A stretch of 64,000 nt of DNA from Geosiphon pyriformis uo1 (taxonomy: Eukaryota > Fungi > Glomeromycota). Shown here piece by piece: positions 18,419 through 64,000 of the stretch. How positions within the stretch are numbered: position 1 is the first letter of the stretch; every line of letters begins with the position of its first letter. The notes under the pieces are model-generated. The model worked only from the letters and a program-made list of their open reading frames with translations. It was not told the origin of the DNA and did no database searches. The translations under genes and the position numbers were made by a program. The stretch is from NCBI GenBank assembly GCA_016748015.1, contig JAAOMT010000607.1, positions 186,001 to 250,000 on the forward strand. Reading direction: 5' to 3'.

Positions 18419-18420
18419 AA

Positions 18421-19498: not shown

Positions 19499-19502
19499 AT
19501 AG

Positions 19503-22021
19503 GTACTATGATGTTATTGATTTCAATTGGTAAGTAGTTGATTTCTCCAATTGGAGTTTTGGTCACTCTATTGGCTATTATGATCTTAGTGCTGGCAGCA
19601 TGATTAACTCAGCAACCTAATTGGTTTATGAGTTGTCAAGTAATAATGCTGTCTACTGATCCATTATCTAATATGAATTTGATAGAATGGCCATCAATTT
19701 TAGCATTAGTGTACATGGTAGTGATCAGTTTTTTTTTGAGTGCAGCTTTACTAAACAAAAGTGTAGATGACAGTTCTTCGAGTTCAAACAGGAAGATTGC
19801 TGTTAGTGATTTGTTGTTGGTAATAATGGCTGAAGATATGTTGCTGGTAAGTGGTAAAGTTTGGTTGGTTTCTATATTATTGGGTGAGACATTTTCTGGG
19901 GTAACCAAGAAACTTAAATAGTGTTAAAAATTTGGGTTTAAAACATGCCCAGTTTTCAAATTCCGAGAATGTAATCCTGTTGGTTGGTTAGAGAAGCTGG
20001 GAATTGGTTAATAAACAACCATTACCAATCTTCAGTTTTGAATAATTCTTGATTTGGGATTTCCTGCTGTCATCTGAGCTGGGTTTGGTGGCAGTGTTTG
20101 AAATTGCTGAGATTGATAAATTACTGGTGGTGGTGGTTGATATAGTACTTGCAACTGTGGTTAATAAATTGGAGGTTGATATACAAGTGTTTAATAAATT
20201 GGCTGCTGCATTATTGGCAAATAAGTCAGTTAATATGGAGCTGAGTTTTATTGATAATTCAGAATTTGAAACTGGCAATCAAAGTTTCAATATTGATTTT
20301 TTGATTATTGGTTATTTAAACATTGACAGCAGTTGATTTGTAAGTGTCTTTGTCTACCACAATAGTAACAAGTGCATGTTTCTTGCTGCCACTGTTAATT
20401 GGTTAATGATGCTGGATGTGGTTAATTTTGGAAACAATTGGAGTTTCCTTGATTGCTGTGTTATTGTGGTGGTTAATAGATTGCCTGATTGTTGTTAGTT
20501 AAGTATCCCTCTAATTTCTAATTGATCAAATCACTAAATTGCTTCAATTTGGAATCCAAGTCAAATAATCTGTTCATTACTAGATTTACTACTTGGGCAT
20601 GGTTGGTTTCTAATTCAATGGCTTCAAAATCTTTGGCATTGGTAATTACAGCTTGCAGGTTGGCTGGATGCAGTGGGCATATGCATTGCAGGATGCTACT
20701 GTGTAATCTATAAATAAATTGATTTAGGATTTGGACTACTGTAAAATAATTGGTGTTAATTGCTTGTATTTGGCACAAATTTCTATGGAAGCATTCCAAG
20801 TAAGTGGTAACAGCTTCAGTTTCTCCTTGTTTTATGGTGGTAAAGGTATTGGCTAACCAGTTAATGCTGTTATTGTTGCTGAAGTATTATAGAAATTTAA
20901 GCTTGAAAACATTGAAATCTTGGAGTTTGTTGATCAAGCTTTGATATTAAGAGTCAGCAGTATCTTGGAGAAAATAGGGGATGGCTTGTATGACTCTGGC
21001 ATTATTTCATCCATTGGCTGCAATGGCTTTTTCCACATCATTTAGCCACACTTGGGTGTTGTTCTCTTTGCTAGTAAATTTTTTGAGTTTTGCTATTGAG
21101 ATGTAGGCCATTGGGTCCAAGTTTGGTTGTTGTGATGGTTGAAGTGGTAATTGCTAAGGTAGTATTGGTGGCTGTTGAAGTTGTTCAGCAATTGGATTAA
21201 TTGGTTGCTAATTAATAATGATTTCTGAAGGTAAGTTTTGCTGATTAATTAACTTGGGGTTTAAATTGTTCTGTGTTTGCTGGGTTTGAATATTCAGAGT
21301 TTTAATTTCCAGATTTTCTGCAATTAGCTTTTGATAATTAAATTCTTGATTCTCTTTTTTTTTTTTCTGAGGCCATTATTTCCCAAGGACTTGTAGTTCC
21401 AAAATCTGGTTGAGGCAGTAGTAATTGAAATCCTGATGACATTGATAATTGTAATTGAAATCTTTCAAAATACTTGCCATAAGTTCTTAATAATTCTGCT
21501 TTTTTTTGTTTACTTTGAAATGGAAATTGTCCAAATGTTAATGTCATGTTTGATGTGGACACAGCTGTTGATGTAATATTGATAGTACTTCTGGGTGTGT
21601 AATGATATGATAGGTAGAATAGAAATTCAAGTCTGGTTTTCTTTCAAATGAGTGGTTATATTCTTTGAGGTATTACTGCTGATGTTTGTAGTTTTCTTTT
21701 GTCTTTGTTTGCATAGGTAATTGGATATCTTTATTGAGTGTGAATTTTAATTTCTTTATTAATTTTAGTAAGAATTGCTGTAAAATCATAATTTGTTGGT
21801 AGGTTGGTATTTTGGATTAATTTGTTGTAGAAATTTCTCCTTGCCAAGTCAGTTTCTGCAGGTACTCCTAACAAATATGAGATCCTTTTATTGATGTAAA
21901 AATTGAAAACTAATTCTGCTAATAAGTAATTGTTGGTTAATTCTAAGTGTTGACAGTAGTATTAAAATAAGAATTTGGCAAATCCTAAATGGTTTGTCCC
22001 TATTTTTTCTGGTTCTCCCAC
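19503..22021 (-). pseudogene. gag: E4 gag and protease N-terminal part (protease continues 9337-9170)
   Basis: ORFs 19636..19908 (IKFILDNGS), 20518..20799 and 21338..21562; CYYCGRQRHLQINC knuckle at ~20330-20372. Confidence 0.85.
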
Positions 22022-22077
22022 TTTTGAATTATTGGTGCTGGTTTTCTGTAGAATTATACCTTACAAGGAACACTAAA

Positions 22078-24222
22078 TGTTACAAATAATTATTTGAAGT
22101 CTCAAGTCAAATAACAAACTCATAACTTGGTGCTTAATTGATGGCTGAGTAGTAATATTTGAAGGTTTTAGTTGAATTTTTTGTATAATAGACAGAGATT
22201 TGATGATGATATGGTACAAATTATTTATAGTCATCAAACAATTTATATAATTTTAAATTGTATCTAGTCTTCCAATTTTAATAATATTAAAAAACTAAAC
22301 TGTAAATATGATAGATTAAGTTCTTTTCTTTCACATTTATGGTTTAATTTTTTGAATTATATTATAATTTATAAAGTTATTAAAGTTTAAATTAGCCACT
22401 TTTATTATTAATCTTTAATTTTCAGATGCCGATCAATCATTAAAGTTACATTATCATGTGATAAATCATCAAAGTATTATTATTTTCAGAAAGGCTTTCA
22501 ATTAATATTAATCTAATCTTTAGATGGTCACTTTTTTATAAAGATATAATATCTTTTGGCTTGTATGTCTTCTGCTGGTGACATAGCATCATTAACCATG
22601 AATATTCCATTCACACCACCACTATATTCAGTTGTCATTATTGAAACAGAAACCCAGATATCAATATTGTTCACACTAGGCATCAAAAAAATTGTAAAAG
22701 TACTATGAGTGATTGTTAGAGAATTTGGAAATGTCATTTGCACTCTATTTGTAATCTTGTGTTATTATAATGTGGATACTTACTTTGAATTTACAAATAA
22801 CCTTTCAATGACTATAATGTTGTGTTTCAAAGAATTGCTTGGATCTAAGAGATATATGAAATTTTCTGTAATAAAGATTTCTGGTTAAATTTAATATTTG
22901 AATGATGAATATATCAAAGAGAAATATAACAACTAAAATACCTATTATGTATTCAACTGAATCATAATCTAGTTTTAGAATTGGTTCCTAGGCTGTAAAA
23001 GAAATTTCAATTGTTGAATATTTCAACAACTTATTAGAATGTGATATATAATAGCTTATCACAATAATCAAGAAACTTACATCAGTTGGTGTTAATTTAG
23101 GGGAATCAGATTAGAATTGAAAGATCTTTGGCTTTATTTTGATTAAGAAAACTGAAGTTGTCTTAAAGCCCATAATCTTGAATAGCTCTTTTTTATTAGT
23201 GTTGTATATTTTCTAACAAGTTCATTTTGATGCAAAAAATGTATAAAACGTATTAGTTTAAGTAGATAAAACCCAGATTTTTTTGTAAAAGCCTAATAAA
23301 CTTCTTACTTATAAATAATATATTAAAAACACATATATATTAACCAATAAAATTTAATTATATAAATAAAAACATGTGAAGATCATCATTTAAAATTTTG
23401 GACTGATCTACATTTTTGATGATTATAAATGGTTTGCACTATAGTAATTTTCTGGAATTGCAATTCTTGCCCAATTTCTTTTTCAGCTTGGTGGCCAGAT
23501 TTACTTTGGCAGTCATGCCCTTCTAATAAGCTATCTATTAATATATATATAATTTTATCCATATTTCTGGGTCTTTTACCAGGCTATTCTTGATGTCAAT
23601 AACTTTGTATTTTAATTCTTAATCAATTAATATACAACAATAAAATCAAAGAAAAGAAAAAAAAAATAAAAAGAAATAAAGAAATAAGCCAAGGCAATTT
23701 ATAAGTTAATATTTTATCAATAGCCATAATCAAGAGCTATTGTTTTAGTGTAGTCAAGTATAGATTATTATTAACATGAAATATTGATAGTAGAGAGTGG
23801 ATTGAGATAGCAAATAGTTATTTATTGATATTTGTGATTTTGGAAGATTGCTTAGATGAAATCTAAACTGAGAGATCTCTCTTTTTTTTGTATTTTTTAA
23901 TAATTATGATTTGTAAGTCTAATTGACTCTGAGTCTTCTTGACTAATTTTCTAACTTTTGATACTACTGCTATATATATATATTTAAGATTCCTTAATTC
24001 CTCAATTTTTCACACCAGGAATCCTAGAATTTCTGGAATCCTGCAATTTTTTTGAGAGAAATTCTGGAATTTTGAAATCTTGTAATTTCTTATATAAGAA
24101 TTCTGAAATTTCTAGAATCCTGCAATTCCTTTAAGAGGAATTCTGGAATTCCATATTTACTATGTCTACTTCTGATTGGCTAATTTATATGCTAATATAC
24201 TTCTTATATTCTATAAGTAACA
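22078..24222 (-). repeat. E4 5' LTR (interrupted by T1)
   Basis: Colinear with 7781-8681 apart from the 1230-bp insert; decayed PBS to its left. Confidence 0.88.
22212..23441. mobile_element. T1: non-autonomous Tc1/mariner(pogo)-like TIR element
   Basis: TA duplicated (22210-22211/23442-23443); ~25-bp imperfect TIRs tggtacaaattatttatagtcatca / tgatgattataaatggtttgcacta; absent from the partner LTR; no transposase seen. Confidence 0.8.
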
Positions 24223-40272: not shown

Positions 40273-43192
40273 ATAAGTGATTATTTATACTTGTTACAAC
40301 AATTAAAAGAACATTTTAAAGCACATAACAAAAATAATCTAGACTTTATTAAACTCAATCCTTTGCTCTTCTGCTTGATTTGCTTCTCCATTGAAGAACA
40401 ATTTAGCAAACAATTTCAAGACTTTTGGAACTAGTTTTTAAACAAGCATTTAGCTGAAACCTACACATCTTATACAACATATTATTTTAATCAAGCTTAT
40501 TTTGAAAACAATTTTGAAAAAAGAAACAATAGCATCAATCAGCTTTTATATTCCACAACTTTTGAACAACAGCCCTCTGATTTCGAATATCTGAATCATC
40601 AAATTCACATTTGGATTGCTGCCCATCAATCAACTGAAACTTTTTTTAAAACAGAAAAAAAAAGCTATTAAACTGCTTCTATTTTTAATTTTTTTTCAAG
40701 TAAATCAGAACATTTCACACAAACAGTTATTCCTAAACCAATAACCCAAGACTCTATGCAACAAAATATTCTGATTGCTCTCCAAGGTATACAGACTGCT
40801 TTAGGGCAAAGAAACAATACCCTATTACTACTATTCAGAGGTGATGCACAAGATTCAATTGAATAGTTGGATAATTTTGAAAAAGCTGCTACAGCCAACC
40901 AGTATGATAAAGAATACAAGTTCCAAATTGTTGGTGGCTACCTCTAAGACTCTTCTGCTACTTGGTTCTTATAAGAAACAGATGCCAATGCTTAACACAA
41001 AATAATCAGATGGACACTAACTAATGCTAAAGAAAAAAATATCTCTTTTACTATCCAGTTTAAAACCAAATTCAAAACTCCAATATTAATATCCAAATGA
41101 CACATGAAATTAGAAAGAAGAACCCAAGGCCCTGGAAAAGTAGTGACTAAATATGCCAAAGCTATCAGAAAGCTAATCAAACATATAGATTCTGGGAGAA
41201 ACTGAACAGAAGAGCAAAAAATCTATTCCTTCACAAAAGAATTAAAAATCAATCTATTGTATGCTTTTTGGTCTCTCTTGGCTTTAAAAGACAACTCAAT
41301 AATGGATATGGCTATTGAACTGGCACAAAGAATTGAAAATAACCAAAAAATACATTTGAGATCTATATTTCCAGTTTTTGCTTCTGCTCCTGCCATGGCT
41401 CCAGCTTCACAAATAACTGCTACTTCTTTTGCCACTCATACTCAAGACTCCAATGAACAATTAATAGACAAATTTACTGCTAACTTTGCTCAGTTATTAG
41501 AACTATTAGCCCAAGCAGTTAGAGACAATCAGCAACTCCAAAGACCCAGATTTGAATCCTGTTTTAATCAGTTCTAGCAACTCCCTTATCAAAGACAACA
41601 AAATTGTGGTCCATCTGTGTATTATTACTGTAGATTAAATGAACATATTTTCAGAGATTGCAATAATTCTCCTTTGTCTCCTTCAGTTCCTAGAAACAAT
41701 AACAATCAAAACAACAGAACTATTAACAATAATACCTCTAATTAAAGACTCAATCATGCCAACATCAATTTCTTTGGAAAGGATCTCCTAGTTGAAGCCA
41801 CTGTTTATTAGTCTTTAAACTGATAGGTGTACCTCTAAAGGGTGAGAGTACAAGCCAACCAGAAAAAAACCCTTTTTTCACTTTTAACTTAATTGATAAT
41901 AATCATAAAATAGATGAATTAGCAATCAACACTTCTGAATCAACAAAAAAGAAAAAAAAGCCAAAGTTGATTTCATTCTAGATCCCAACAAAGTCTCAAC
42001 TTCCACTGCTGATAACAATAAGCCACCAAAAGCCAAGGTTTTTAAAAATTTTTTAAAGTTAGAACTCCCAAAAATAGTACAAAAATCTGGTTTCTATTCT
42101 GTTGTCAAAAATCTCATAGAAACCCCAGCTTATATTATCTTTGGCCAGTTAATAATTCATCCTCAATTCAGAAAAGATTTTTACAAATTACTATTTCCAA
42201 AAAAAAAAACACCAAAGACCAACAAATGCCTATGTCAAGCTGAACTTGCTGACATCAGTAATGTTACCCCTTTTATCTGTAAAACTCAAGTGGCTGGTTA
42301 CTTCATTGATCTGATCCTGAATAGTAGATTATCTGTTAGTGTCATTGTCAAATACTTTTTAGAAACAATTGGTAGAAAGATTGATGAACCATCCACATGA
42401 CCAATAACCAATGTACATAGTGACAAGAAAAAAGGTCTGGGCATAGCCAAAGCTGTTTCTGTCCGAATTAATGGCATCAACATTGAAACTGACATGGAAG
42501 TATCTGAAGCAAAAGAATACACCATAATAGTTGGCAATAAATGGCTCAAAAAAATTAAAGTCTTGCTTGATTATGAACTCTGTGAACTGATCATCAAATG
42601 TGATAAAAAACCTATTGTAGTTAAGTGTCACTATTAAACAACTCCTTTAGTACCCAAACAAAGCCAAGAAGAAAAACAATCAGATGAATCAAATGATGAT
42701 GAGAGTGATAATAAAGAAGATCAAAAAGAACAAAAAAAAACTGTTAAACTCGCCTATACTATCTTTACCAGCAATGGCAAGCCACTAGACAATATTAAAG
42801 CTAACAAAGAAGGAATCATGGTAAATGGCAAGCTGATCTGCTGGTTCTACTATGATATCCTCAGAAAAATCTTTGACAGAAAATCTGGCAAAAAAGCCAA
42901 ATACAGTTATTGGTAACATGATCTTTGTGCACAGTACTGGTGTAATAAACCTTTACCAAATGATAAATGCAAATCTTGTTTGATCTATTACAAAAATTGG
43001 AAACCAATTAGCTTGATACTTCAAGAAAAACTTAAAAAAATACAAAAGTCTTTTGAAAATAAATCACCTGAAATTCAATTACTAGTTATAGAACAAAGAA
43101 AACCTTCTCCTGAAGAAAAAAAAATAGACATTGAAAATTTGTTGGCTAAAAATAGTCTAGTTATTTTAAAAGAAAGTGATGCTTTTAAACAC
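40273..43192 (+). pseudogene. gag: E7 gag and protease
   Basis: LFRGDAQDSIE.LDNFEKAATANQY; RTQGPG; decayed knuckle ~41620-41662; protease LILNSRLSVS…TIIVGNKWL. Confidence 0.8.
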
Positions 43193-46476: not shown

Positions 46477-49476
46477 GAATTGTACTTTTCTATTTTTTTT
46501 TGTGACTAATACCACTGGAGAAAACCAAGGGCTTAATGATTTTTTAATCAGTCCATTGTCAAACATTTGTTGTACTTCTTGTTTAATCAGATTATCACCA
46601 AATGGGAGTACGTAGTAAGCTCATTGTTTAATCAGTCGAGCGTCTTCCATATCAATCTGATGCTTCACAATGTTGGTGTGTCTGAACTCATTTTTGCTGG
46701 CAAAGACATCAGCATACTGGTTCCGAAAGACTTTGAGTTGCATTTGTTGCAGGGTACTTAAGTTTTCTAAATTCAATTTATTGATCTTTTCTGGTATAAA
46801 CAAGTAACTTTCTTTTGGCAAATTCCATACTTGTGAGGTAATGTTACAGAATAAAAATAATTGTGTGAAATCTGGAATGGACTGGGGTTTTTTAAGATTC
46901 TGAATATTTGTGGATATGTAACCAATGAGGGTTCTTTTGGGGATTTTAATGACATCTTCTATGGGATTGTGGATGGGAATTTTGAAGTGTTTATGGGCTT
47001 TGGCTGGTAGGTATAGATTAGCAACATTGGCTAGAGAACAGATTTTGGAACTGGCTTCAAATAACAAGGCTTGATCTTAGATCTTTTGATTCACCTTGAA
47101 GATGTATTGTTGGTATGGGGGGATGGAGATAATAGTGTCAGTATAGATAAATTCTACCTGGTCACTGTCTTCTTCTGTGAAATTAACTGGTATGTTTTCT
47201 CTTCCACTTGATCCAAACCTGTTGATTTCTTGGACAGTAAGGCCTAATTCTTCTTGGGTTGTTACCAGGATCAATTGGGATATTTTGACTAAGGGTAAAA
47301 AGATAGCTTGGGCAATCTTTTCTTGTAATTCTATTTTGTAAAATCTGTCTGAATTGTTCTGTAGTATTATAATGATGTTCCCTGTGTAACAGGCATTTAT
47401 GATTCCTTTTTTTATGTCGATTCCTTTCTTGACTAAACTAGATCAAGAGACAATTTGTATCATTGTACTAACAGAAATTTTTAATGCTATCTTAAGATTT
47501 ATTTTTACAAGAGAATATGAGGCTATAATGATGGATGATTGTCCAGGATATCATAGATCAAAACTGGCATCGGTGTCATATGCTCTTTCAGAACAGATTT
47601 CTTTCTCGTTGTTACTGTATCATTTTAGCTCTAATTTTTTGGAAAGATCGAAATACATAAGATATTGTTTTGTTTCAGTATTTTTAGTTGGATCTTGAAA
47701 TAACATGTCTTTGGTAATCAATACCTTTTTTTCTTTGGGCTCAGATAGTTCAGTGATTGGAAACAGTATTTTTGGAAGCAGATTAAACATAAGATCACAT
47801 TCATCACAGTACTAAAAGTGATAGGAGATCAAACAGTAATTGCACAGTTTGGTATTCAAATCAGCCAACCTTTGCTCTTGTTCTTCACAAGTTGGGGCCA
47901 ATTCCTGATATTGGTTCTGAAATGCATCTGAATCATTTGTGAAGAAATCATCCATGGAGTAGTTGAATTCATTATATTTGGGCATCCAAAAGTTGTTCTT
48001 GATTTCTTGTATCTCTTCAGACATGGTATCTTTGGCTTTGGTGCTTGCCATTTTCCAGATTTTGTAGTTATCATGTGGATAACTGTCCAGCCTGTTGAGT
48101 GCTTGTTTCCAAGCATCTTTGATGGAGGTTCTCTTTTGTACCCAATTGTTGATTAATATGGTGTATTGACAAGCCTTGTCACATGTTTTTCCTCTGCCAG
48201 GCACATCATTTCAGAGTCCTTCATCAGGCAAGATCTCATCACATGCGAGGCATGGCATATTGTCTCACTTGCCTTGTTGCTTTGGTCATCTAAATCTTTC
48301 TAGTACATAAGGTCTGCAGTAGTTTTTGGTGGTGGTGAACCATTCTTTATTGTCTCCGATATATGCACCCATAGTGAATAGCTTCTTTTCACAATTAAAA
48401 CATATTAGTCTTAGAAGTTGGTAAAATAGATTTCTTTGGTTCAAAGTTACATATCCTATTGATAACAATTGGAGCTCTTCTTTAGCTCTGCCTTTTCTTT
48501 TTTCTTTTCAGGTTGATGGTGGGAGTAGTTCAATTTGATAGTTGTCTGCCCATGAAACCTAATAGATCTCAATGGTCAGTAGTAGTGGTATGTCTTCAAA
48601 TTCAATAAGGGGTTCCTTGATATGTTGGGTTTTAAAGTATCCACACATAGCTGGGACTCAGGCATACTGTCTGTTGAACATGAGTTGAAGTTCTTGGGTG
48701 TTTCAGTTGAGAGTAGCATTGGTCTTTGACAACTAATTATTTTCTACTAAAGCTTGATATTGAATAATTTCCATGACAAGTACTTTGATAGGAATTTGGA
48801 TTCTATTAATCTCGAAGAGAAAGTTGTCAATTTTTTCTATTGGGGTTTTTGTGTTTCTATCTGCTGTAATAATCCAGGCAGTAATAGCATGGTCTATTCA
48901 GTGACCTAGTTGGTCTATAAGCTGCTTTGGGATTATGCTACCAGCTAATCTGCTATTCAGGATTAACTTAATGTTTATTTCTCTGACTCTGGCATTGGTG
49001 TATAGGGCCATTATTGGTTTATCCTGATTGATGGCTGCTCCACTAAAAAGACTATGAGTATTCAAATTATCAATGTCAAAAGGAAATATCATGGCTAAAG
49101 TGGTGTCCTTGATAATAGTGGCTGGTGGGATATTGCTTTTTGTTTGCTTAAAAGGTTTGGAGGTTTGCTCTACATCTCTTTCTTTCATAGATGTAGATTT
49201 ATCAAAACTCTGGTTTTCCATGAGACTGAAATAGGAAGCTTGATTTAAGTATCCAGTTGGTGCTAGTCAAGATTGGTCAAGATGGTCCACTGTTAGTTTG
49301 CACCTGATTTTTGTTGGAATTCTTTCATTCCTGATTATAGTCTATAGCTCAAAGTCTGGATGGACTGTAAGGAGAAGTTGGATAGTGAGAGATTGCTTGT
49401 GTCATTGGTGGTGGTTGATAATAATTCTGGGGTGGTGGTTGAGTGTACAGGACTTGTTGTGCATATTGGGGTGGTT
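46477..49476 (-). pseudogene. pol: E8 gag tail, protease, Cys domain, dUTPase, dUTPase-like, RT start
   Basis: ORFs 48898..49221, 47812..48204, 47077..47274 and 46621..47067, colinear with E5. Confidence 0.85.
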
Positions 49477-51494
49477 GTCTGGCTCAATTTGGAGGAATTC
49501 TTGGTTCTGTTTATGTTTTTATCATCATTGTTTCCAATGATCAGGTTTTCCAGTATATTAAGGTAAGTTTGTTGATAATTTTGGTAGTTTGGATTGGTTT
49601 GCTGATTGGTTCTGGCACGGTTTGGATTCCTCTAAATCAACGCATTCTGGTTCCACATGGGCTGATTTCGGGCCTCGGAACGCCAATTCGGGTTGGCTAT
49701 CATAAGCTGTTGCTGGTAAGCTCCTTGATTTTGATACGTGGTGGGATATTGGCGTGGTATTGGCGTGTACTGGTTTCTGGGCATTTGGGGCACGTAGTAA
49801 TTATTTTTGCATGCTTCCTGCATCATTCGCATTCAACATTGACTAATTAAATGTCCTACGCATTTGCAAAAATGGCAGGCGCGCGTTCCTGTTCTGAATT
49901 CCTGGCGTGACGAGCAATTATTTCGACTGTTGCTGACTTCCTGGCTGCATCTTTGGGGTGGTTGGTATGTATTTTTTTTCAGATCCGGGATGAGGTAACT
50001 TTCTATTTTATTAGAAAGTTCCTCCCCTAATTGCGTTACTCTTTTCTTTAATGTTTCTGTCTTATTTTTCTCCATTACCATGTTAACCATTTGACTATGG
50101 TTAGCTTCTTTCTCAGCCAATTCAAGGGCTCTGGCGAGCATAACGGCTTCTGGTAAGGAATTAGAGTGGGCAGGGCGTACTCTTCCTAAAATGCTGCTTT
50201 TTAATCCTTTAATAAACTGATTTAAAACCTGAGGATCAGTGTAGTATCCTTGTTCAATTGCTTCAATCTGACGGTGAATTCGATTGAATCAAGCAAGGTA
50301 TTGGGTGACAGTTTCACCAGTATTTTGCTTGATAGTATTGAATTCGTTCTATAGTTGGATTACGGCATTTGGGTTGTTAAAATACTTTAGGAGTGCATTT
50401 TTAAATTCGGCGAAGCTTGTGGGTTTTGTTTCCAGACTTTGATACCACGAGTCGGCTGTGTCTTTCAGGAAGAAAAGTAATGTTTGAATTGCTCTTTGGT
50501 CATTCCAGTTATTTGCCTGGATGGCTTTTTGTGCTTCTCTGAGCCATGTGTGCATGTCCGTTTCTTCTTCCTCTCTTGAGAAATCTGTTAGTCTTGCAAT
50601 ATATGGTGTGGTTATTTCGTTGCCATTTTCTATTGGTGGGTTTATTGGTCTAAGAGAAAGTGGGATGATATTTTCTTGAGCGTTCCTAAAGGTGGCTTCC
50701 CTTATATCCGGTTCTTCCTCTTGATTATGAGTTTCTTGGTTTCTGGACTGGCTGCTTGTTTCAGTGACTGGTCTTGTAATTGTTTTTTCACTGGTCTTTT
50801 TTTCAGATTCCGATTCAGACTCCTCTTCACGGTTTTCAAACCCCGTTCTAAATTTTGGCTGAAAAAGAGGGTTTTGGAATAGTGATGAATATCCTCCTGT
50901 AATTGGTATGTCTTTCCAGTTACGTTGTTTAATTTTATCAGTATAACTAGGAGTTCTTGGCATTTGTGGAGTTAATGTTGATGATGATGCAGCTCCTAAT
51001 GGAATTTGTATCTTATTTTCTGGTAAAAAATAGTATGATTTATCTTCTGGTGAATAAATACATTGTTTTTTTATTGATTGAGTGACAGTTTTCTTTGGCG
51101 TTTGAGCTGGTGTTCCTAGTTTTTGCTGGTTACTTTCCTGATTAGTTTCTAAATTTTCTTTGGTTTTGTTGGCGCATTCCCTAGTGTTTCCTGTGGATAT
51201 TGGAAAATTTTTGTTGGCGTATTGCTCAATTTCTCGATGGATTTTGACAATAGTTGCAGCTATTACTGCTACTTCTTTTGTAGTGTATTGTGATAATTCT
51301 CTATACAATCCAAGTTTTGCGTCGTGTGGTTCTTCTTCCTTTCCTATATGATAATTTATTCTGGCGTTGATATAATAAGTGAGGGCAGATTCTACTGGAC
51401 AACACCTTTCTGGTAATTCAAGATCACTTTGATTTTGTGTGTAAATAGCATGACAAAATTCAAGAACAGTAAGATTAGGGGTTTTTGTTGCCAC
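49477..51494 (-). pseudogene. gag: E9 gag
   Basis: 381-aa ORF 50349..51494 plus ORF 49833..50141 with the CHFCKCVGHLISQC knuckle. Confidence 0.88.
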
Positions 51495-51576
51495 TTTTGT
51501 CTTTTCCTTTTTAGCAATGAATTATTGCTAATTATTATTTCTTTTTTGATTTTCTTTCCTTGTAGGGTTTACCAAA

Positions 51577-52452
51577 TGTTACGGAATGGTTTTCTTGTTA
51601 TATTTAATTGCTGATATCCCGTTTTAATTGCAATCAGTCTTTCGTGAGTTCCTCAATTCTATTTGTGTAATAATGTTACTGTTATACTGAAGGCTTTCTT
51701 TTTACTGTTGTGATGTAAGTTATTCTTTGATTCTTGATTGTTGTGTGTGTTTATGTACTCCTTTTCAGAGGCTGAACTGAAATCTACCCACTGTCTGGGG
51801 TCTTCTCTGAGGCTATCTTTGCAATTGCCTGATGTGTTTCTCTAATCTAGAAACACAAAATGTTAATGGTTTTTAGCGCTTTTCTAATTCTCACAATAAA
51901 GCTTTTATCAATTAGTAACAACGTGAATAATCTTGATCAAGGATTATTTTTCCAAGGGATTCAGTTAATGAATGATAGTTTCATTCAATAAATAATACAA
52001 GTAAGTTTCTTAATATTTTGGGTTGTGATAGTTCCATTTTAAATATTTTTTTCATTTCTTTTTGATTTTAAAAGGTTTCTTGGGATATTTAATTTGAAAG
52101 TATGATTTAAAGTGAAGTTTGTTGGATAAAATTGGATCTGTTGCTTGATAAGTTATGATTTTTATTACTTGATTGATTATTTTCCAATATTAAAACTATT
52201 GTATATATACATGTTTGTAGTTCTACAAAAAAACACATTGTAATACTTTCTTTTTGATATTTCAACCTGGTGTTTGCTGCTATCACCAGTTGGTGTTGGC
52301 TGCTATTGTGAACTGGTGCTTGCCACTATCACGAGATGGTGTTTGCTACTATGTTAATCATTACCTTTCTAAGATCATTACTGTGCTATATTATGATTGA
52401 ATAGTTTGTATTATTTTTATGATTCTTTTTGCTAAATTCTTAAACCATAACA
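51577..52452 (-). repeat. E9 5' LTR (family C)
   Basis: Reverse complement of 57363-58237; PBS at 51558-51574. Confidence 0.9.
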
Positions 52453-53097: not shown

Positions 53098-53101
53098 ATG
53101 T

Positions 53102-54400
53102 ATCCATGTGATACAACATACCATTACCACCAAAGAAACTTATCTCATCTATTTAAAGCCTTATCAATCTAATTAACACAATAATAAGTTTATCAAGAAA
53201 GAGATAAACTGGATGAAAGATCTTAGATTCATACAAAAAACCAAAAGTGGATGGGCTTTTCCAGTTGTAGTAGTATCCAAAAAAGATAGAACCCTATGCT
53301 TCTGCATCAATTACTGCTAACTAAATGCCATTATTATAAGAGACATGTACCCACTCCCCAAAATTGATGTAATGCTAGATAAATTCAATAGTGCTGCTTT
53401 CTTCTTAATTATTGACTTAACTGTTGAATTCTGGCAAGTAAAGATAGATCCAGAAAGCAGAAAGAAAACTGCTTTCATTACCAAGTATGGCACCTATAAA
53501 TTCACAGTCATGCTTTTTGGTCTCACCAATACCTCTCCTACCTTTCAACACCTAATAAACAAAGTGTTTAAATCAGTGAAAAAAAACTTTGTTCTAGTTT
53601 ATTTGGATGATATAATAATATACTTAAAAACCTGGAATAAACACCTTGAATATTTGCAGAAAATTTTTGATCTGCTTAAAAATGCTGGCCTTAAGATCAA
53701 CCCAATCAAATCTTTCTTTGGATGCCAATCCACCCAGTTTTTTGGTCATTTTATTACAAAAGATAGAATTTTCTCTGACCCAGCTAAAGTTGAAAAAGTT
53801 CAGAACATTAAACAACCAATGAATGTTTCTGAATTACACTCTTTCTTTGGTTTGGCTTCTTATTATTGCAAATTTATTAAAGATTTCTCCAAAATCGCCT
53901 TTCCACTTAATCAGCTACTTAAAAAAAATGTCAATTATCACTGGAGCACTCATCAACAAAAAGCTTTTGAAATTCTAAAGAAAAAACTTGTTACTGAACC
54001 AATTCTTAAGTAATCTGACTTGGACCAACCTTTTATTCTCCATACTGATACATTTAACTATGGACTTGGTGCTGTCCTGTTACAAAAAGATAAAGATGAT
54101 AGAGAATATGCTATAGCATATACCAGTAGATTCCTTACACCAGCAGAAAAGAACTATTTAATAACTAAACAAAAATGCTTAGCAGTAGTTTGGACTACTA
54201 ATTATTGGGATCAATATCTTCTTGGTGCAAAATTCTTAGTGGTAACAGATCATCAAGCCTTGGTTTGGCTACACAACAAAAGAAAGCTGGAACACAAATG
54301 GATAACTTGCTGAATACTTTACTTAAACAAATTCAACTATGACATTCAACACTACAAAAAAGCTAATTATCAAAACACTGACACTCTCTTCAGACTTATT
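53102..54400 (+). pseudogene. pol: E7 reverse transcriptase and RNase H
   Basis: ORFs 53345..54013 (YPLPKID, YLDDIII) and 54020..54313 (LHTD, LGAVL, VVTDH). Confidence 0.92.
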
Positions 54401-54479
54401 ATCTAATAATAGTACAACCTCTTAACCAAATCAACTTAATTATTAGTAACTCTCTTATAAACAAACACAATAATGAATT

Positions 54480-55787
54480 TGGACAACTATTTTGTCTTAA
54501 TAGAATTTTTGGGTAAAGGACAATACTTACCGAATTACACTTAACCGCAAAGAGAACATTTGTGCAAACAATCAAATTTCTATTTGATTTACCAGAACCA
54601 ATTATATAAAAAAAACAAAAAAGATCCTAACCATCCCCAAAGAGTCATAAGATTTAAAGAAAAAGAAATTGTGATCTATAACATGTATACTGATCTATTA
54701 GCTGGACACTTTGGAAAAACAAAAACAATTCAGAAAACATTAGCTTGCTATTATTGGCCTACCTTGGAAAAGAACATTGCTGAATACATTAAAACCTATG
54801 GCATCTGTCAAAGAAAAAGCAAACCCAATCACAAAGAAGATATCCACCCAATTTCTGTTGGTCAACTATTTGACAGAATTAATATAGATGTTGTTAGATC
54901 TTTAACAATAACTTCTAATAACAACAAATACATTATTACAGCTACTGATTATCTTACAAAGTGAGTAGAAGCAAGAGTTATTCCAGACCAAACAGCAGTC
55001 TCAATAGCCAATTTTATTTATGAAGATATTATCTGCTGTTATGGCTGCCCCAAAAAACTTTTATCTAATAGAGGAAGAGCTTTTCTCAGTACACTGGTTG
55101 AAGAACTTTGTAAAAAAATGGGAATACATTATAAACTTTCTTTTTCTTACCACCCTTAAACAAATGGCCTAGTGGAACATTTCAATAGAACATTATATAA
55201 AACTCTAACCAAAACCAGTAAAAAAACAAACTTATGGAACAAAATACTGCCTTTAGTATTGTTTGTTTATAAAACTGTGAATTATGACATAACAAGTTAT
55301 AAACCTTTTTATCTGTTCTATGGATGCATGGCAACACTACCAATAGAAACTAATATTAAGATAATACTCTTTGAAGAAATCACAATAGGAAATTACAAAG
55401 ACATTTTGCAAAGAAGACTTAGTACTATTCTTGACTCCTTGGTAAAAACATGAATAATTGCTTTTGAAAAGATAAAACAGTTCCAAGAAAAGCTCAAAAA
55501 GAAAAAAACTTATAAAACACTTTTTTTAAGTATTAATAACTTGGTATTAGAATATTGTTTAGACAAAGACAATGTCTATGGTGATAAATTCTCTAACTGG
55601 TAAAAAAGACCCTTTATAATCAACAAAGTTTTGAACAATGGTTCTTATATTCTTCAAGATCAATTTAGAACAATCTTCAATGATTGTTCTGTTCATGGTA
55701 CATAATTTAAGAAATATTATAAATGACCTGATTGGTTGTCTGTTGTAGTAATACCAACCCAATTAATCAGCAAAAATCAAGTATAAA
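54480..55787 (+). pseudogene. pol: E7 integrase
   Basis: ORFs 54560..54964 (AGHFG…YYWP…ICQ; IDVV; TDYLTK) and 55172..55453. Confidence 0.88.
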
Positions 55788-55790
55788 TAA

Positions 55791-56425
55791 ATGCATTATT
55801 TCCAAAACAAAGGTATCTTCAATCAACATAAACAATTATTTTCTGGATCAAAACATTTAAAACGTTTTCTATACTCTCTATAAGTATTGAATCAAAAATT
55901 ATTCAAATACTATTTTGACTATTGGAAAACAGACCACCATAACTAATAACAGTGAAACACATACTGTTATTAAACCAAAAAAAACTACTACCAGAAGAGA
56001 AAAAATTGGTAGCAAAATAGATAAATACTTGTTAGAAAGTATAACAGCAGCTATATTTCTACTTTCTAGCACAATTGGAAAAACAATTCAAAAAATCTTG
56101 CCTATAAACAAAAATTTGTCATATAGAAGGCAATTAAAATTTTATGGTTGTCTTGAAAAAATCATAGGGGATATAAAACTTTTGAAGAAAACAACTTCAG
56201 AAATACAGGCAGAAATTTTGGGCATTATATGATTAGATGTCCCAAGAGTTTTAACTATTATTAAAAAAGCCAAAACTTTAATACAAAGATTTGGTCTCTT
56301 GGATACAAAACTCATTTTACCTTAAGTACTATATATCTTATCCACAAAAAACTTCAACAAACTAGTTAGCTTTGAGATTACATCATGAATAGCTTGATTT
56401 TACCAAAGCTCAATTTCTTTGGAAA
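55791..56425 (+). pseudogene. E7 ORF3 (divergent)
   Basis: ATG 55791 just after the IN stop; ORF 55915..56232; tail …DFTKAQF beside the PPT. Confidence 0.55.
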
Positions 56426-57362: not shown

Positions 57363-58237
57363 TGTTATGGTTTAAAAATTTAGCAAAAAGAATCATAAAA
57401 ATAATACAAACTATTCAATCATAATATAACACAGTAATAATCTTAGAAAGGTAATGATTAACATAGTAGCAAACACCATCTTGCTATAGTGGCAAGCACC
57501 AGCTCACAATAGCAGCCAATACCAACTGGTAATAGCAGCAAACACCAGATTGAAATATCAAAAAGAAAGTATTACAATGTGTTTTCTTATAGAACTACAA
57601 ACATGTATATATACAATAGTTTTAATATTGAGAAATAATCAATCAAGTAATAAAAATCATAACTTATCAAGCAATAGATCCAATTTTATCTAACAAACTT
57701 CACTTTAAATCATACTTTCAAATTAAATATCCCAAGAAATCTTTAAATCAAAAAGAAATAAAAAAGAATATTTAAAACTGAATTATCACAACCCAAAGTA
57801 TTAAGAAACTTACTTGTATTATTTATTGAATAAAACTATCATTCATCAACTGAATCCCTTGGAAGAATAATCTTTGATCAAGATTATTTACATTGTTACT
57901 AATTAATAAAAGCTTTATTGTAAGAATTAGAAAAGTGCTAAAAACTATTAACATTCTGTGTTTCTAGATTAGAGAAACACATCAGGCAATTGCAAGGATA
58001 GCCTCAGAGAAGACCCCAGACAGTGGGTAGATTTCAGTTCAGCCTCTGAGAAGGAGTACATAAACACACACAACAATCAAGAATCAAAGAATAACTTACA
58101 TCACAACAGTAAAAAGAAAGCCTTCAATGTAACAGTAACATTATCACACAAATAGAATTGAGGAACTCACGAAAGACTGATTGCAATTAAAACGGAATAT
58201 CAGCAATTAAATATAACAAGAAAACTATCCCATAACA
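57363..58237 (+). repeat. E10 5' LTR
   Basis: tgttatgg…cataaca; TATA-like gtatatatac at ~57605; short U3 repeats at ~57465-57550. Confidence 0.92.
57998..58054 (+). promoter_or_regulatory. Conserved covarying RNA structure in the LTR (putative cis-acting RNA element)
   Basis: ATAGC-CTCAGAG-AAG-ACCC…GGGT-AGA…CAGC-CTCTGAG-AAGG; families A/B use CTGGTAA/TTACCAG at the same position. Confidence 0.55.
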
Positions 58238-58239
58238 TT

Positions 58240-58256
58240 TGGTGAACTCTACAAGG
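58240..58256 (+). promoter_or_regulatory. E10 primer-binding site (different tRNA from A/B/D)
   Basis: TGGTGAACTCTACAAGG, 2 nt after the LTR; E9 has TGGTAAACCCTACAAGG. Confidence 0.75.
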
Positions 58257-58319
58257 AAAGAAAATCAAAAAAGAAATAATAATTAGCAATAATTCATTGC
58301 TAAAAAGGAAAAAACAAAA

Positions 58320-60330
58320 GTGGCAACAAAAACCCCTAATCTTACTGTTCTTGAATTCTGCCATGCTATTTACACACAAAATCAAAGTGATCTTGGATTA
58401 CCAGAAGGGTGTTGTCCAGCAGAATCTGCCCTCACTTATTATATCAACGCCAGAATAAATTATCATATAGGAAAGGAAGAAGAACCACACGATGCAAAAC
58501 TTGGATTGTATAGAGAATTATCACAATACACTACAAAAAAAGTAGCAGTAATAGCTGCAACTATTGTCAAAATCCATTGAGAAATTGAGCAATACACCAA
58601 TGAAAATTTTCCAATATCCACAGGAAACACTAGGGAATGCGCCAACAAAACCAAAAAAAATTTAGAAACTAATCAGGAAAGTAACCAGCAAAAACTAAGA
58701 ACACCAGCTCAAACGCCAAAGAAAACTGTTACTCAATCAATAAAAAAACAATGTATTTAGTCACCAGAAGATAAATCATACCATTTTTCACCAGAAAATA
58801 AGATATAAATTCCATTAGGAGCTGCATCATCATCAACATCAACTCCACAAATGCCAAGAACTCCTAGTTATACTGATAAAATTAAACAACGTAACTGGGA
58901 AGACATACCAATTACAGGAGGATATTCATCACTATTCCAAAACCCTCTTTTTCAGCCAAAATTTAGAACGGAGTTTGAAAACCGTGAAGAGAAGTCTGAA
59001 TCGGAATCCGAAAAAAAGACCAGTGAAAAAACAATTACAAGACCAGTCACTGAAACAAGCAGCCAGTCCAGAAACCAAGAAACTCATAATTAAAAGGAAG
59101 AACCGGATATAAGGGAAGCCACCTTTAGGAACGCTCAAGAAAATATCATCTCACCTCCTCTTAGACCAATAAACCCACCAGCAGAAAACGGCAATGAAAT
59201 GACCACACCATACATTGCAAGACTAACAGATTTCTCAGGAGAGGAGAAAGAAACGGACATGCACACATGGCTCAGAGAAGCACAAAAAGCCATCCAGGCA
59301 AATAACTGGAACGACCAAAGAGCAATTCAAACATTATCTTTCTTCCTGAAAGGCACAGCCAACTCGTGATATCAAAGCCTGGAAACAAAACCCACAAGCT
59401 TTGCCAAATTTAAAAATGCACTCCTGAAGTATTTTAACAACCCAAATGCCGTAATCCAACTACAGAATGAATTCAATACTATCAAGCAAAATACTGGTGA
59501 AACTGTCACCCAATACCTTGCTCGATTCAATCGAATTCACCATCAGATTGAAGCAATTGAACAAGGATACTATACTGATCCTCAGGTTTTAAATCAGTTT
59601 ATTAGAGGATTAAAAAGCAGCAATTTAGGAAGAGTATGCCCTGCCCACCCTAATTTCTTACCAGAAGCCATTACGCTTGCCAGAGCCCTTGAATCGGCTG
59701 AGAAAGAAGCTAACCATAGTCAAATGGTTAACATGATAATGGAGAAAAATAAGACAGAAACATTAGAGAAAAAAGTAACGCAATTAGGAGAGAAACTTTC
59801 TAAGAAAATAGAAAGTTACCTCATTCCGGATCCGAAAAAAAATACATACCAACCACCCCAAAGATGCAGCCAGGAAGTCAGCAACAGTCGAAATAATTGC
59901 TCATCACGCCAGGAATTCAGAACAGAAATGCGTGCCTGCCATTTTTGCAAATGCATAGGACATTTGATTAGTCAATGTCGAATGCGAATGATGCAGAAAG
60001 CACGCGAAAATAATTACTACGCGCCACCCCAAATGCCCAGAAACCAGTACACGCCAATACCACGCCAATATTCCACCACATATCAAAATCAAGGAGCTTA
60101 CCAGCAACAGCCCATGATAGCCAACCCGAATTGGCGTCTCGAGGCCTGAAATCAGCCTATGTGAAACCAGAATGCGTTGGTCCAGAGGAATCCAAACCGT
60201 GCCAGAACCAATCAGCAAACCAATCCAAACTACCAAAATTATCAACAAACTTATCTTAATATACCAGAAAATCTGATCATCAGAAACAATGACAGTAGAA
60301 ACATAAACAAAACCAAAAATTCTTCCAAAT
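58320..60330 (+). pseudogene. gag: E10 gag (N-terminal extension, capsid, CCHC knuckle 59937-59978)
   Basis: One reading frame broken only by point nonsense changes. Confidence 0.9.
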
Positions 60331-60399
60331 TGAGCCAGACAATACCACCAGCAGTTGCCACCAAAGATAGCAGCCTCGCAGCTATTTTTCCTTTTGAAT

Positions 60400-60840
60400 T
60401 AGAGGAAAACGAGGCTATGTTCAGTGGAGCAGCATTGGACGAAAAATGCCCAATCACTGCTATGTATACGGAAGCCACTGTAAACAATACCCCAATTAAA
60501 CTTATCTTAAACAGCGGATCCGCTGGAAGCATCGTAACACTTCAACTAGTAAACCAACTGGGTTTCAAAGTTGATCGTGCTGCGATGTCCCAAATCATAA
60601 CAGCTGATGGAAATACAAAGCTGTCTCATGGCGAAATTGACTCATTCCTTTTCGAAATTAACGGCATAGTAATATCTACAAAAGTATTAGTAATGGATGC
60701 TACACAATATCAAGCATTAGTAGAGAATGACTGGCTAACAAAAGCCAACGCCATCCTAGACTGGACCACCCAAGAGCTTCTAATCAATTATAATGGCCAT
60801 CAGGCCAAAATTCCAGCCACCTGTGGCCACTTCCAAAAAC
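60400..60840 (+). pseudogene. pol: E10 aspartic protease
   Basis: IKLILNSGSAGSIV (catalytic D>N) and ALVENDWL. Confidence 0.88.
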
Positions 60841-61037
60841 CCAGCACCAACCAAAGACCTACCTTCGAATTTGAGGAAAATTCAGCACTACCAGCCATCA
60901 AAACCTATCAGCTCTTTTGGGCTGATGACCAAAGAACAGGACTACCAGCCATACCAATGTGGACCAGTGAAGAAAGATCCGAATGGAACCAGGTAAGTTC
61001 ACAAAGAAACCACCAGTGACGCAGACCAAAGCTAGAA

Positions 61038-61630
61038 TGCTCGGTTTGCAAGAAGAAACTCTCGTCTATGACTGTGTGCAGCGCACCGGACGAAGATCCA
61101 AGAAACTCCACCCACTACTATTGTAACCGTTGTAACAAAGAAAAATACAGTTACCCAGAAAGACATGGAAAATGGGACAAAGAACTGTGCCTCACTTGTG
61201 GAGAACCATTACCAAGAGGGTGCGACTGGAACAACATACCAGGCAGAGAAGGAACGTGTGATGCAACTTGCCAATACACAATCTTCATCTGTGACTGGGT
61301 AAGAGGAAAAATGCCGTTTAAAGCAGCATTCAACAGAGCATTAAGAAGACTGCAGCACTACCTACATGATGAAAATAAGTTATACAACACTACACAAGCC
61401 AAAGTAAGAGAAGGAACCGCCAAAGAAATACGACGTTGGAAAGAGTCAGCCAAAATAGCTGACGAAGTCACTAGCTACAACATGTTCGACCCAGTAGACA
61501 AATTCCAGGACTACTACCAACAACTATGCCCCATTCGACAAGAGCAAGAACAATACCTCGCCCAAATCAACACTTATCTCTGCGAAAACTGTCTTATCCC
61601 GTGCCAAAATCAGTGCTGTGAAGAGTGTCA
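61038..61630 (+). pseudogene. E10 Cys-rich putative zinc-binding domain
   Basis: CSVC, CNRC, CLTC, CDATC and CENCLIPCQNQCCEEC, in frame between protease and dUTPase. Confidence 0.75.
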
Positions 61631-61779
61631 AGACGAAAGGGACTTAGAAAAAAAAATGGAAATTGAGAATCAGCAGTCTCAAAATCAATCAATAAATCAA
61701 CAAGACTCACCTGACAGTCCCGAGTCAGAAAAATTTGTAGCCTATACTGACCTAGAACAGGTGACCGACATCCGATACT

Positions 61780-62200
61780 TTGACAACAGGCACTTAGGAA
61801 TAATACCCAAAAGAGCCCATCCAACCAATACTGGATTCAATCTATGTTATCCAGAAGACCAATCCACAACGTTACCACCCAAGAGCATTACCAAAATCGA
61901 TCTAAAAATAGTGGTTGAAATTCCGCCAGGAATAATGGTTCAAATGGCGTCGCAATCAAGCCTCGCGAAAAAAGGAATAAGCATTCAAGGAGGAGTAATT
62001 GACTCTTGGATACACTAGAAATTTGATGGTTTTGCTACAGAACAATTCAGAAAAGCCTTATACCATTGAATCTAAGGAAAAAATTGCACAAGCAATTTTC
62101 TTACCATTGGTAAAAATTGGGAAATTCGTGCCAGTGAAAAATTGTGAGGAATTGTCACAAACAACGAGAGGAACTTTTGGTTTTGAATTGACAGGAAAAG
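61780..62200 (+). pseudogene. dut: E10 dUTPase domain
   Basis: HPTNTGFNL, SQSSLAKKG, GGVIDS/GYTRN (1-nt insertion ~62007), EKIAQAIF, RGTFGFELTG = motifs 1-5. Confidence 0.92.
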
Positions 62201-62249
62201 GAATTGAAACAAATTTCACTAAAACAATAGAGGAAAAAGGCAAAGTAAT

Positions 62250-62500
62250 TAAAAATGAGCAGTCCATTATGTTCCTACCATATGGAAAATCAGAAATAAG
62301 AATAAAAAGGACAATTAAAGAAAAAGACCTAATATTTGAGCTCTACCCAGAAACTTGCCAACAGTTTCTCATAGGACTTACTAACCTTTTTATTCCAGCT
62401 GATAAAGCTCAATGGATAAAAATTTCTATTGCAAACACCACAGAAGAACCTGTCTACATTCTGGAAGATACCATCATTGGATACCTCGGAATGGAGCTAG
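62250..62500 (+). pseudogene. E10 degenerate second dUTPase-like domain
   Basis: LPYGKSEIRI…IKISIANTTEEPVYILEDTIIGYL echoes dUTPase beta-strands without the catalytic motifs. Confidence 0.45.
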
Positions 62501-62699
62501 AAAACGCGTCAACACCACAAGAAATTCTAAATTTCCCAGAAATTGCCCTCTACTGTGAACTCACTTCAATAGATTGGCAACAACTGTTAGAATGCTATCA
62601 ATTTACGCCAGAAGAATTGGCCAAATTAAACATTGGAACAATGGATCCTGACCAACAGTGACAATTAAAAGCATTAATTTTAAAATACTCTGATATATT

Positions 62700-64000
62700 T
62701 TCAAGAAATGGTGAATTTGGAAAAACCAACTTGGTTCAACACCAAATCCCCACTGGAGATGCCAGATCTGAAAAACAATGTGCTTACCGTGTCTCACCAA
62801 TGGAACATAATTTTATCAGAGAAGAAGTTCAAAGCATGTTGGAAAAAGGAATAATACAACCATCAATGAGTCTATGGTCCTCACCAGTTGTTTTAGTAAG
62901 GAAAAAGAACGGAAAAATTAGATTTTGCGTTGACTATCACAAAATAAACAGCAAAACAACCAAAGACTCATACCCAATACCATTAATTGACAAAATCTTT
63001 GACATTTTGGAGGAGCAAAATGGTTTTCTACACTGGACTTGACCAGTGGGTACTGGCAAGTGGAAATAGACCCAAAAGACAGACATAAAACAGCATTCAC
63101 AACACAAAATGGCAATTATGAGTTCAATGTAATGCCATTTGAATTAACAAACACTCCCGCGACATTCCAAAGACTAATGGACGTAATTTACTCCAGAATC
63201 CTGTGGCAATCCGTTGTTGTCTACTTGGATGATACAAATGTTTTCTTGGCAAAATTCATGGATTATCTCCAACATTTACAACAAGTTTTTGAGAGATTGA
63301 GACACGCTGGACTTAAACTAAATCTAGAAAAATGTTTCTTTGGGAAAAATGAGCTAGCATTTTTAGGACACGTAGTTGGAAAAGATGGAATAAAACCAGA
63401 TCCATTAAAAATAGACAAAGTAAAAAATTTTCCAGTATCTCAAAATGTTTCAGAAGTTAGAAGCTTTTTAGGACTCACATCTTACTACTGCCGCTTTGTA
63501 GAAAACTTTTCAAACATTGCCAAACCCCTTAATTACCTACTATCTAAAAATGTGAAGTTTGAATGGACTGAAGCACAACAAAAAGCTTTTGAGTACCTTA
63601 GACAAAAGCTCATTGAATCACCAATAATGATCTATCCGAATTTCAACAAGAAATTCATTTTGGCCACAGATGTCTCTAGAACTGGACTTGGAGCCATTCT
63701 GTTACAAAAAGATGATAATAGAAGAGAACGTATAATCACTTATGCCAGCAGAAGTTTCAGTACGGCAGAACAAAACTACGCAGCACATGAACTTGAATGC
63801 TTAGCAGTAGTTTGGAGTTGTGTTCACTTTGACACATATTTACAGTACCAATCCTTTGAGATTACGACAGATCATAGAGATTTGGTCTGGTTAAATAACA
63901 AGAAAGCACTAAAAAGAAAATATGCCAGATGGTCACAAATGTTAGCACCATACAATTATATTATCAAATACAAAGAAGGTACCAAAAATGCTAATGCTGA
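62700..64000 (+). pseudogene. pol: E10 reverse transcriptase and RNase H
   Basis: WSSPVVLV, RFCVDY, LDLTSGYWQ, YLDD at 63222-63233, LATD, NYAAHELECLAVVW, TDH; frameshift at ~63010. Confidence 0.95.

Follow-up and report, generated by a model that had tools for sequence, protein, structure and literature searches.

We analysed a window of 64,000 nucleotides from the fungus Geosiphon pyriformis uo1 (contig JAAOMT010000607.1 of assembly GCA_016748015.1, positions 186,001 to 250,000), which consists of decayed long terminal repeat (LTR) elements stacked on one another. At its right end, from position 57363 to the window edge, lies E10, a Ty3/gypsy copy of what we call family C. Its order is LTR, Gag, protease (PR), a cysteine-rich domain of 205 aa (hereafter Cys domain), dUTPase, a second domain predicted to share the dUTPase fold, reverse transcriptase (RT) and RNase H (RH); the integrase (IN) and a third open reading frame (ORF3) fall beyond the window end. 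Copies of two other families within the window, A and B, carry the same series with IN and ORF3 included. This combination is real, selected and, in the literature searched, undescribed within Ty3/gypsy.

All E10 features given here lie on the plus strand. The 5' LTR (57363-58237; 875 bp) has inverted ends TGTTATGG/CCATAACA and is 92-95% alike to an inverted copy at 49475-52452. A primer-binding-site-like motif, TGGTGAACTC, with TGG, occupies 58240-58253, 2 nt (TT) after the LTR. The putative GUG start of ORF1 (58320-58322) opens a Gag N-terminal domain belonging to no named family (58320-58700; 28-33% of amino acids conserved across families). Next come the capsid (59214-59696; Pfam Ty3_capsid and Retrotrans_gag, E 7e-9 and 3e-12), a CCHC zinc knuckle read in the sequence (59937-59978), the aspartic protease found by Pfam (60471-60782) and the Cys domain with putatively three zinc sites (61020-61634). 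A trimeric-type dUTPase, also found by Pfam (61800-62193), precedes the second, motif-less domain, or pseudo-dUTPase (~62221-62505), which has homologues in the spacer between PR and RT of numerous gypsy elements. RT (62734-63374, with YLDD in 63213-63239) and RH (63564-63998, its C-terminal motif cut by the window edge) complete the copy. Pfam hits along E10 fall in this order: Ty3 capsid/Retrotrans_gag, aspartyl protease, dUTPase, RVT_1 and RT_RNaseH.

Judged by its sequence, E10 is a mutation-riddled, dead copy, because its dUTPase and RT are frameshifted (near 62005 and 63004), its protease motif reads NSG and eight stops interrupt the Gag-dUTPase frame (58299-62015). An initial reading of the letters, here the first-pass annotation, had described gag through dUTPase as one frame. 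The five ORF starts that it named do share a frame, but besides the eight stops, Pfam dUTPase positions 4-72 and 73-128 lie in different frames.

The family B copy E5 (9338-19495, minus strand) shows the whole domain order including IN and ORF3. The family A copy E3 (3050 to ~29250) is complete after discounting a nested insertion at 7781-24222, which is flanked by a 4-bp duplication (ATGT/ATGT) and interrupts the dUTPase-fold domain; E3 was first taken to be without Cys domain and dUTPase, until mapping of this insertion ruled that out. Pfam together with fold and profile work confirmed the order proposed in the first-pass annotation, full in families A and B and through RH in E10. The assignment to Ty3/gypsy follows from the order PR-RT-RH-IN with Ty3-like Gag and RT (the best PDB sequence match of the profile was Ty3 RT, E 4e-30), and from TGTTA...TAACA LTR ends, a TGG after the LTR and 4-bp duplications. 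TGTNR termini are typical of Gypsy (PMC2836005). As a side observation, the target duplications at 7781/24222, 9338/19495, 43193/53099 and 57363 are 4 bp long with a central TG, CA or TA, which fits decayed CpG targets.

The Cys domain follows the pattern Cx2C-x24-Cx2C, Cx2C-x19-Cx3C, helical bundle, Cx2C-x3-C-x4-Cx2C. Ten of its cysteines are at least 75% conserved and make up two Cx2C-paired sites and, beyond the helical bundle, a third cluster; by this pattern the domain likely binds zinc at three sites. No Pfam, NCBIfam or PHROG family matched it at E<0.05. Foldseek searches of PDB and BFVD with its structural model (pLDDT 78.8, pTM 0.46) gave nothing that reached E<=0.001, the top rows being weak ones to RING (E 0.42) and LIM (E 0.64), and the best VIA-align match (Z 6.1) covered the three helices only.

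Relatives of the Cys domain were found, among the sources checked, only in G. pyriformis and environmental records. A search of 1.84 billion representatives gave 229 matches at E<=0.001, of which 150 were listed; 148 pieces of at least 60 aa fell at 68% identity into groups of 37, 34, 31, 21 and 12 plus 13 singletons. Seventeen of 18 matches were G. pyriformis proteins, the best 85% identical, and the sources of 20 matches, picked partly as outliers, were G. pyriformis for 17 and ENA environmental records for 3. The domain also occurs in a JGI locus (L001, E 2e-10; the one locus out of 153 pattern matches in the JGI scan) and in the JGI protein P0316 (E 2e-6), bringing the environmental sequences to five overall, while IMG/VR scans returned no relative. 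Among the 119 other best RT-bearing matches to the environmental protein P0015 (best 120 of 6,888), just one has the Cys domain. In some RT-clade relatives (P0219-P0229, P0237, P0239, P0257 and P0281), the PR-RT spacer holds Cys clusters that differ from this domain and are shorter, so that the spacer seems prone to taking up zinc-type inserts. We also observed that the metagenome fragment L001:1-1349 has PR and the Cys domain after a different Gag-PR linker, with a CpG observed/expected ratio of 0.15, like the window.

These distributions bear on the alternative that survives best, although we consider it unlikely: that the lineage belongs to a clade of identical domain content that has been catalogued before, whether Tmt1-, Ylt1- or SN_1006-like, in Repbase or in the published Glomeromycotina library. 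LTR elements make up 41.2% of the G. pyriformis genome, most of whose transposable elements derive from known sequences (PMC11952901), and fungal lineages that are non-chromoviral or have a dUTPase between PR and RT are in print (PMC2864245). Against this stand the restricted occurrence of the Cys domain and the fact that no paper found in our literature search joins 'Geosiphon' and 'dUTPase'. The searches, which covered few subscription journals and no supplements (relevant entries may lie in Novikova's additional files or the PMC11952901 library), listed nothing that describes the lineage or reports gypsy spacers with a dead dUTPase fold. The first-pass annotation knew of no element combining dUTPase, Cys domain, pseudo-dUTPase and ORF3. 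The combination as such was indeed not found, but dUTPase with a non-Env ORF3 has been published for fungi and rotifers.

The first of the two dUTPase-like domains was likely an active trimeric dUTPase in the working ancestor, to judge from its motifs in P0015. This environmental relative has a single open frame of 1064 aa running from the Gag end through PR, Cys domain, dUTPase and spacer into RT. Its dUTPase has the five motifs conventionally named I-V, intact and in canonical order (AAYDL, SRSS, GGVIDSGYTG, EKIAQ and RGIQGFGSTG), and scores 73 bits in Pfam at a cut-off of 22.

The second domain is predicted to have a dUTPase fold. Motifs I-V were absent from its alignment, and it had no Pfam or NCBIfam dUTPase match. 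Its model (pLDDT 80.4) gave 18 Foldseek matches at E<=0.001, and every match listed was a dUTPase. VIA-align ranks 1-22 were all dUTPases, dCTP deaminases or herpesvirus derivatives, and the next, unrelated rows had Z<=5.3. The best VIA-align match reached Z 10.7 (root-mean-square deviation 2.2, 87 aligned), and the Epstein-Barr virus (EBV) dUTPase was the top structural match. The herpesvirus proteins pp71/UL82 and ORF10, also among the structural matches, we take to be catalytically dead relatives of dUTPases.

A profile built from 54 PR-RT spacers matched 65 of the 119 gypsy polyproteins, among them named ones from Ephydatia, Acropora, Cordylochernes and a frog. By direct profile comparison, the Geosiphon second domain matched this general spacer profile, drawn from gypsy proteins without dUTPase, at 95.6% (score 49.9, compared with <=9.9 in 20 column shuffles) and the element's own dUTPase at 1.6-1.7%. 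The general spacer matched dUTPase at 84.4% (score 33.9; 15 shuffles <=14.8) with the P0281 row excluded; an earlier value of 93.5% was dropped, a true dUTPase row (P0281) having been in the spacer set. The relation of the second domain to dUTPases is thus seen via the fold model and the wider spacer profile only.

In the RT-RH tree, an animal-type non-chromovirus clade is the sister of the clade holding the window copies. The latter fall away from Tanacetum, Chara and Haematococcus proteins; the tree has no named fungal chromovirus, and the plant proteins are chromoviral by inference. Of the 56 proteins of the sister clade, 54 have the motif-less domain and none a dUTPase, and in the window-copy clade the motif-less domain occurs in 1 of 30 database proteins and dUTPase in 3. 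Because of its near-universal presence in a sister clade without dUTPase, the motif-less domain is likely ancient, and the live enzyme was likely acquired afterwards. The first-pass annotation was therefore borne out on the fold of the pseudo-dUTPase, but not in counting it towards a lineage-specific expansion of the gene set, since the sister clade has it too. Relatives carry the modules in different combinations: in P0316, the Cys-domain end and dUTPase occur but the motif-less domain does not, P0281 and P0313 have dUTPase with neither of the other two, and P0237 has the motif-less domain with another Cys insert.

The same data make it quite improbable that the motif-less domain arose by tandem duplication of the element's own dUTPase, completing a herpesvirus-like single-chain enzyme. 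The two domains adjoin, share a predicted fold, and have the EBV enzyme as top structural match, all of which a duplication would explain. However, the profile comparison strongly prefers the general gypsy spacer to the element's own dUTPase (95.6% versus 1.7%), the domain is present in 54 of 56 sister-clade proteins that are without dUTPase, and P0316, P0281 and P0313 keep a dUTPase without it. Moreover, the herpes dUTPases have their motifs split across the domains, whereas here the first domain holds all five.

We next considered how the copies have diverged. LTR or copy pairs showed transitions at 98 of 104, 145 of 149 and 120 of 125 differing sites, and the decay rate was 0.33 per CpG versus 0.09-0.13 at other C sites. 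For the pairs 3055/28535, 9338/18421 and 49790/57363, we observed 94-97% transitions, in all CpN contexts and about three times faster at CpG, which has the look of methylation-driven decay or of decay resembling repeat-induced point mutation. We propose that the host killed the copies by C-to-T/G-to-A change. Because the differences are almost all transitions, plain dN/dS is misleading, and selection was tested against a transition-matched neutral null that keeps the substitution types (500 shuffles).

In A-type pairs, amino-acid changes were fewer than under the null: a value as low as that observed was reached by 0 of 500 shuffles for the Cys domain (in two pairs), the dUTPase and the C-terminal part of ORF3, by 2 for the Gag N-terminal domain and by 8 for half of the motif-less domain. 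In the B pair it was reached by 0 of 500 for IN and 1 for the C-terminal part of ORF3. Between families, at synonymous sites near saturation (proportion differing, pS, 0.66-0.74), the Cys domain keeps 36-43% identity and the motif-less domain 32-40%. On these results, the Cys domain is under purifying selection. The earlier claim that the accessory domains are kept under selection holds for A-type pairs and for identity between families, but not for the two B copies (B1 and B2), between which the Cys domain, dUTPase and motif-less domain look neutral; most of the neutral parts of B1-B2 differ almost only by later transitions.

It could be argued that both the Cys domain and ORF3 are host sequence carried along as a passenger, without a role in transposition. 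The neutral Cys domain of B1-B2 (327 of 500 shuffles) would agree with this, as would close relatives that replicate without the Cys domain and ORF3 matches restricted to G. pyriformis (36 of 36 for the E5 protein). Nevertheless, we regard this as very improbable: the frame and the cysteines are kept in five G. pyriformis groups and five environmental sequences, A-type pairs beat the neutral null, and the Cys domain lies in frame in the open ORF of P0015.

Translation of ORF1 likely begins at a GUG, as the first-pass annotation had suggested for Gag. The nine letters of the context, CAAAAGTGG, recur in six of seven copies from the three families, where they share the frame of the conserved N-terminal domain; none of those six has an in-frame ATG between LTR and GTG. 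A change from ATG to GTG is an unlikely direction because mutation here runs from G to A.

At the other end of the polyprotein, a stop terminates RH in three elements, E5 and E3 among them, and in both of these two the integrase follows as a separate ORF. That of E5 is an ORF (11216-12583, minus strand, 455 aa) whose ATG lies 13 nt past the RH stop in another frame. The integrase is therefore a separate gene, a point on which the first-pass annotation was silent. In the RT-RH clade of the window copies, 26 of 30 database proteins stop within 75 aa past RH, against 3 of 56 in the sister clade. Pfam found H2C2, the rve core and SH3 on the E5 integrase and no chromodomain (one copy, in frame), in keeping with the non-chromovirus placement originally given.

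ORF3 of E5 (10419-11135, minus strand, ~240 aa) has a TATA-like box ~40 nt upstream, as in both B copies. Its profile matched the A copies at E 6e-18 and 6e-10, the former being the C-terminal part in E3 (4006-4398, minus strand). No Pfam family of note matched ORF3, and none of five proteins had a hydrophobic or transmembrane segment (maximal 19-residue Kyte-Doolittle mean 0.44-0.79; 1-3 Cys). It is accordingly conserved between families and non-Env, as first described. Family C likely has an ORF3 too, because a contig continuing from its LTR ends in a GAQS-stop frame before the polypurine tract, resembling the GAQF-stop of family B. Residues 1-135 of P0176, a G. pyriformis gene model, represent a third and divergent kind of ORF3, which may belong to family C. 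That the lineage forms retrovirus-like infectious particles with ORF3 as an unusual envelope is extremely improbable: ORF3 sits at the env position and its profile matched one human immunodeficiency virus (HIV) gp160 chain (E 0.003), but this was the sole match at E<=10 among 177,635 sequences with many Env chains and is taken as chance, no Pfam Env family was matched, and the proteins are without a hydrophobic segment and poor in Cys.

Taken together, we put at about three in four the probability that these copies descend from an ancestor with the Cys module, an active dUTPase, an inherited motif-less domain and separate IN and ORF3. Several points count against this. The trees were FastTree trees of 146 and ~320 columns from mostly unnamed sequences, and short metagenome contigs may account for some of the early ends after RH. 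Between B1 and B2, the null was reached by 64 of 500 shuffles for PR, 86 for dUTPase, 57 for the motif-less domain and 121 for the N-terminal part of ORF3, in addition to the value for the Cys domain, and codon alignments were all protein-guided, which favours apparent conservation. The 54 spacers of the general profile were chosen by our own motif, making the pick partly circular, and 38 spacer rows were included in the alignment used for the second-domain fold. In two of six database proteins, the residue at the GUG position is M. Transcripts of the sense strand were not found. Lastly, any role for the Cys domain is a guess from a model of pTM 0.46 without a fold match.

In the ancestor as we picture it, a GUG-initiated polyprotein from Gag to RNase H of roughly 1,900 aa would be cut by the protease inside the particle. 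Its dUTPase would probably clear dUTP at cDNA synthesis, a benefit in resting spores, where the host would supply little dUTPase. Limiting uracil in cDNA has been argued for the dUTPases of retroviruses in non-dividing cells (PMC4531489; PMC2864245). The motif-less domain would probably be a long-standing component of gypsy Pol with a structural or scaffolding role, predating the active enzyme that it adjoins. The Cys domain, made one-to-one with Gag, might bind nucleic acid in the particle, an assignment to which we give slightly less than an even chance; a role as protein adaptor against host silencing seems distinctly less likely. ORF3 would very probably not be an envelope and may be a separately expressed, soluble regulator.

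A wider scenario can be put forward tentatively. The ancestor of a large non-chromovirus Ty3/gypsy branch found in sponges, corals, arthropods, frogs and early fungi might already have had a dUTPase turned structural part of Pol, to which the Geosiphon lineage added a second, active one by capture, along with a new triple-zinc domain. If so, retroelement dUTPases would no longer be only scattered late captures. In gypsy Pol more widely, the motif-less dUTPase fold seems to be common though unannotated, so that ideas on how retroelement dUTPases arose can be tested. The lineage is abundant in G. pyriformis, and in a single element it brings together a zinc-type domain that has no name, an integrase with a gene of its own and a start codon that is likely not AUG.

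Contigs from sequencing runs X2 and X3 (two samples, two studies) carry a spliced copy of family C whose template corresponds to 57363-62569 on the minus strand. They skip 68-201-nt pieces of E10, amounting to at least 14 introns. Among 15 joints listed of 37, 14 are in X2, 13 of those also in X3, and none in X1; seven are CT..AC on the plus strand, with minus-strand donors GTATG, GTAAG, GTAGG or GTGAG. Where E10 has A/T, the contigs carry G/C (185 versus 16 in X2), and because of this their source is taken to be not E10 but a family C copy with fewer mutations. In most antisense exons, every frame contains stops. We read the contigs as a spliced, seemingly non-coding antisense RNA, the runs not being recorded as RNA and the contigs having no direct strand. 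Antisense long non-coding RNAs from transposable elements have been reported in Blumeria (PMC10648671). Behind 62569, the contigs of both runs continue into sequence whose alignment to family B IN (score 22 versus 21 elsewhere) is too weak to establish a deletion derivative. Coverage of families A and B by runs X2, X3 and X4 is limited to scraps. Separately, the extra base in RT at 63004 was present in 6,971 of 14,686 of X1 depth, and a family C subfamily may share the broken RT frame.

Other elements in the window were also noted. The family C copies at 49470-52452 (minus strand) and 57363-60349 (plus strand) are inverted and 95% alike, and the left one ends before the protease and runs on into family B sequence. 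A fourth gypsy family occupies 40900-43190 and 53100-56200 on the plus strand, with a B element inserted; it has PR, RT, RH and IN, a different short Cys-rich insert and no dUTPase match.

Elements sharing part of this architecture have been described. A dUTPase in gypsy Pol is known from Postia (PosPlaTy3-5), Phanerochaete and Tuber Tmt1 (PMC2864245); the Tmt1 of PMC1142308 is a different, plant element. In PosPlaTy3-5, the dUTPase lies between PR and RT in Ty3/gypsy order, as in E10, but the Postia elements are treated together with chromodomain-bearing ones, and section 5 of that paper mentions neither a Cys domain nor a second dUTPase fold, and neither a separate IN nor a conserved ORF3 (PMC2864245). 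The bdelloid rotifer elements Juno, Vesta and TelKA resemble the E10 lineage in having a PR-RT dUTPase, no chromodomain and diverse non-Env ORF3s (PMC5408684). With such elements published and no Env here, calling the gene set virus-like, as had been done initially, overstates its case. Juno differs in having its extra zinc knuckle after the dUTPase, whereas the 205-aa domain of E10 precedes it, and the rotifer ORF3s, as far as that source details them, are GDSL esterases, DEDDy exonucleases, and transmembrane or Env proteins, unlike those here (PMC5408684).

For the motif-less domain, the closest parallels are animal-type gypsy elements (Ephydatia, Acropora, Cordylochernes and frog), which have the same beta domain between PR and RT but differ in having no dUTPase, no Cys domain and, in 47 of 56, IN fused to Pol. 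A 'dUTPase-like' domain between PR and RT has been reported in planarian Burro (PMC6431247), and a dUTPase domain in the gypsy Pol of the PNMA-ancestor metavirus (PMC11011659); if either is the motif-less spacer domain, such a domain has already been seen case by case. A precedent for a structural role comes from bovine immunodeficiency virus (BIV), whose dUTPase is inactive yet required for replication (PMC4261571). Unlike in BIV, the motif-less domain here adjoins an intact dUTPase in a retrotransposon lineage and seems older.

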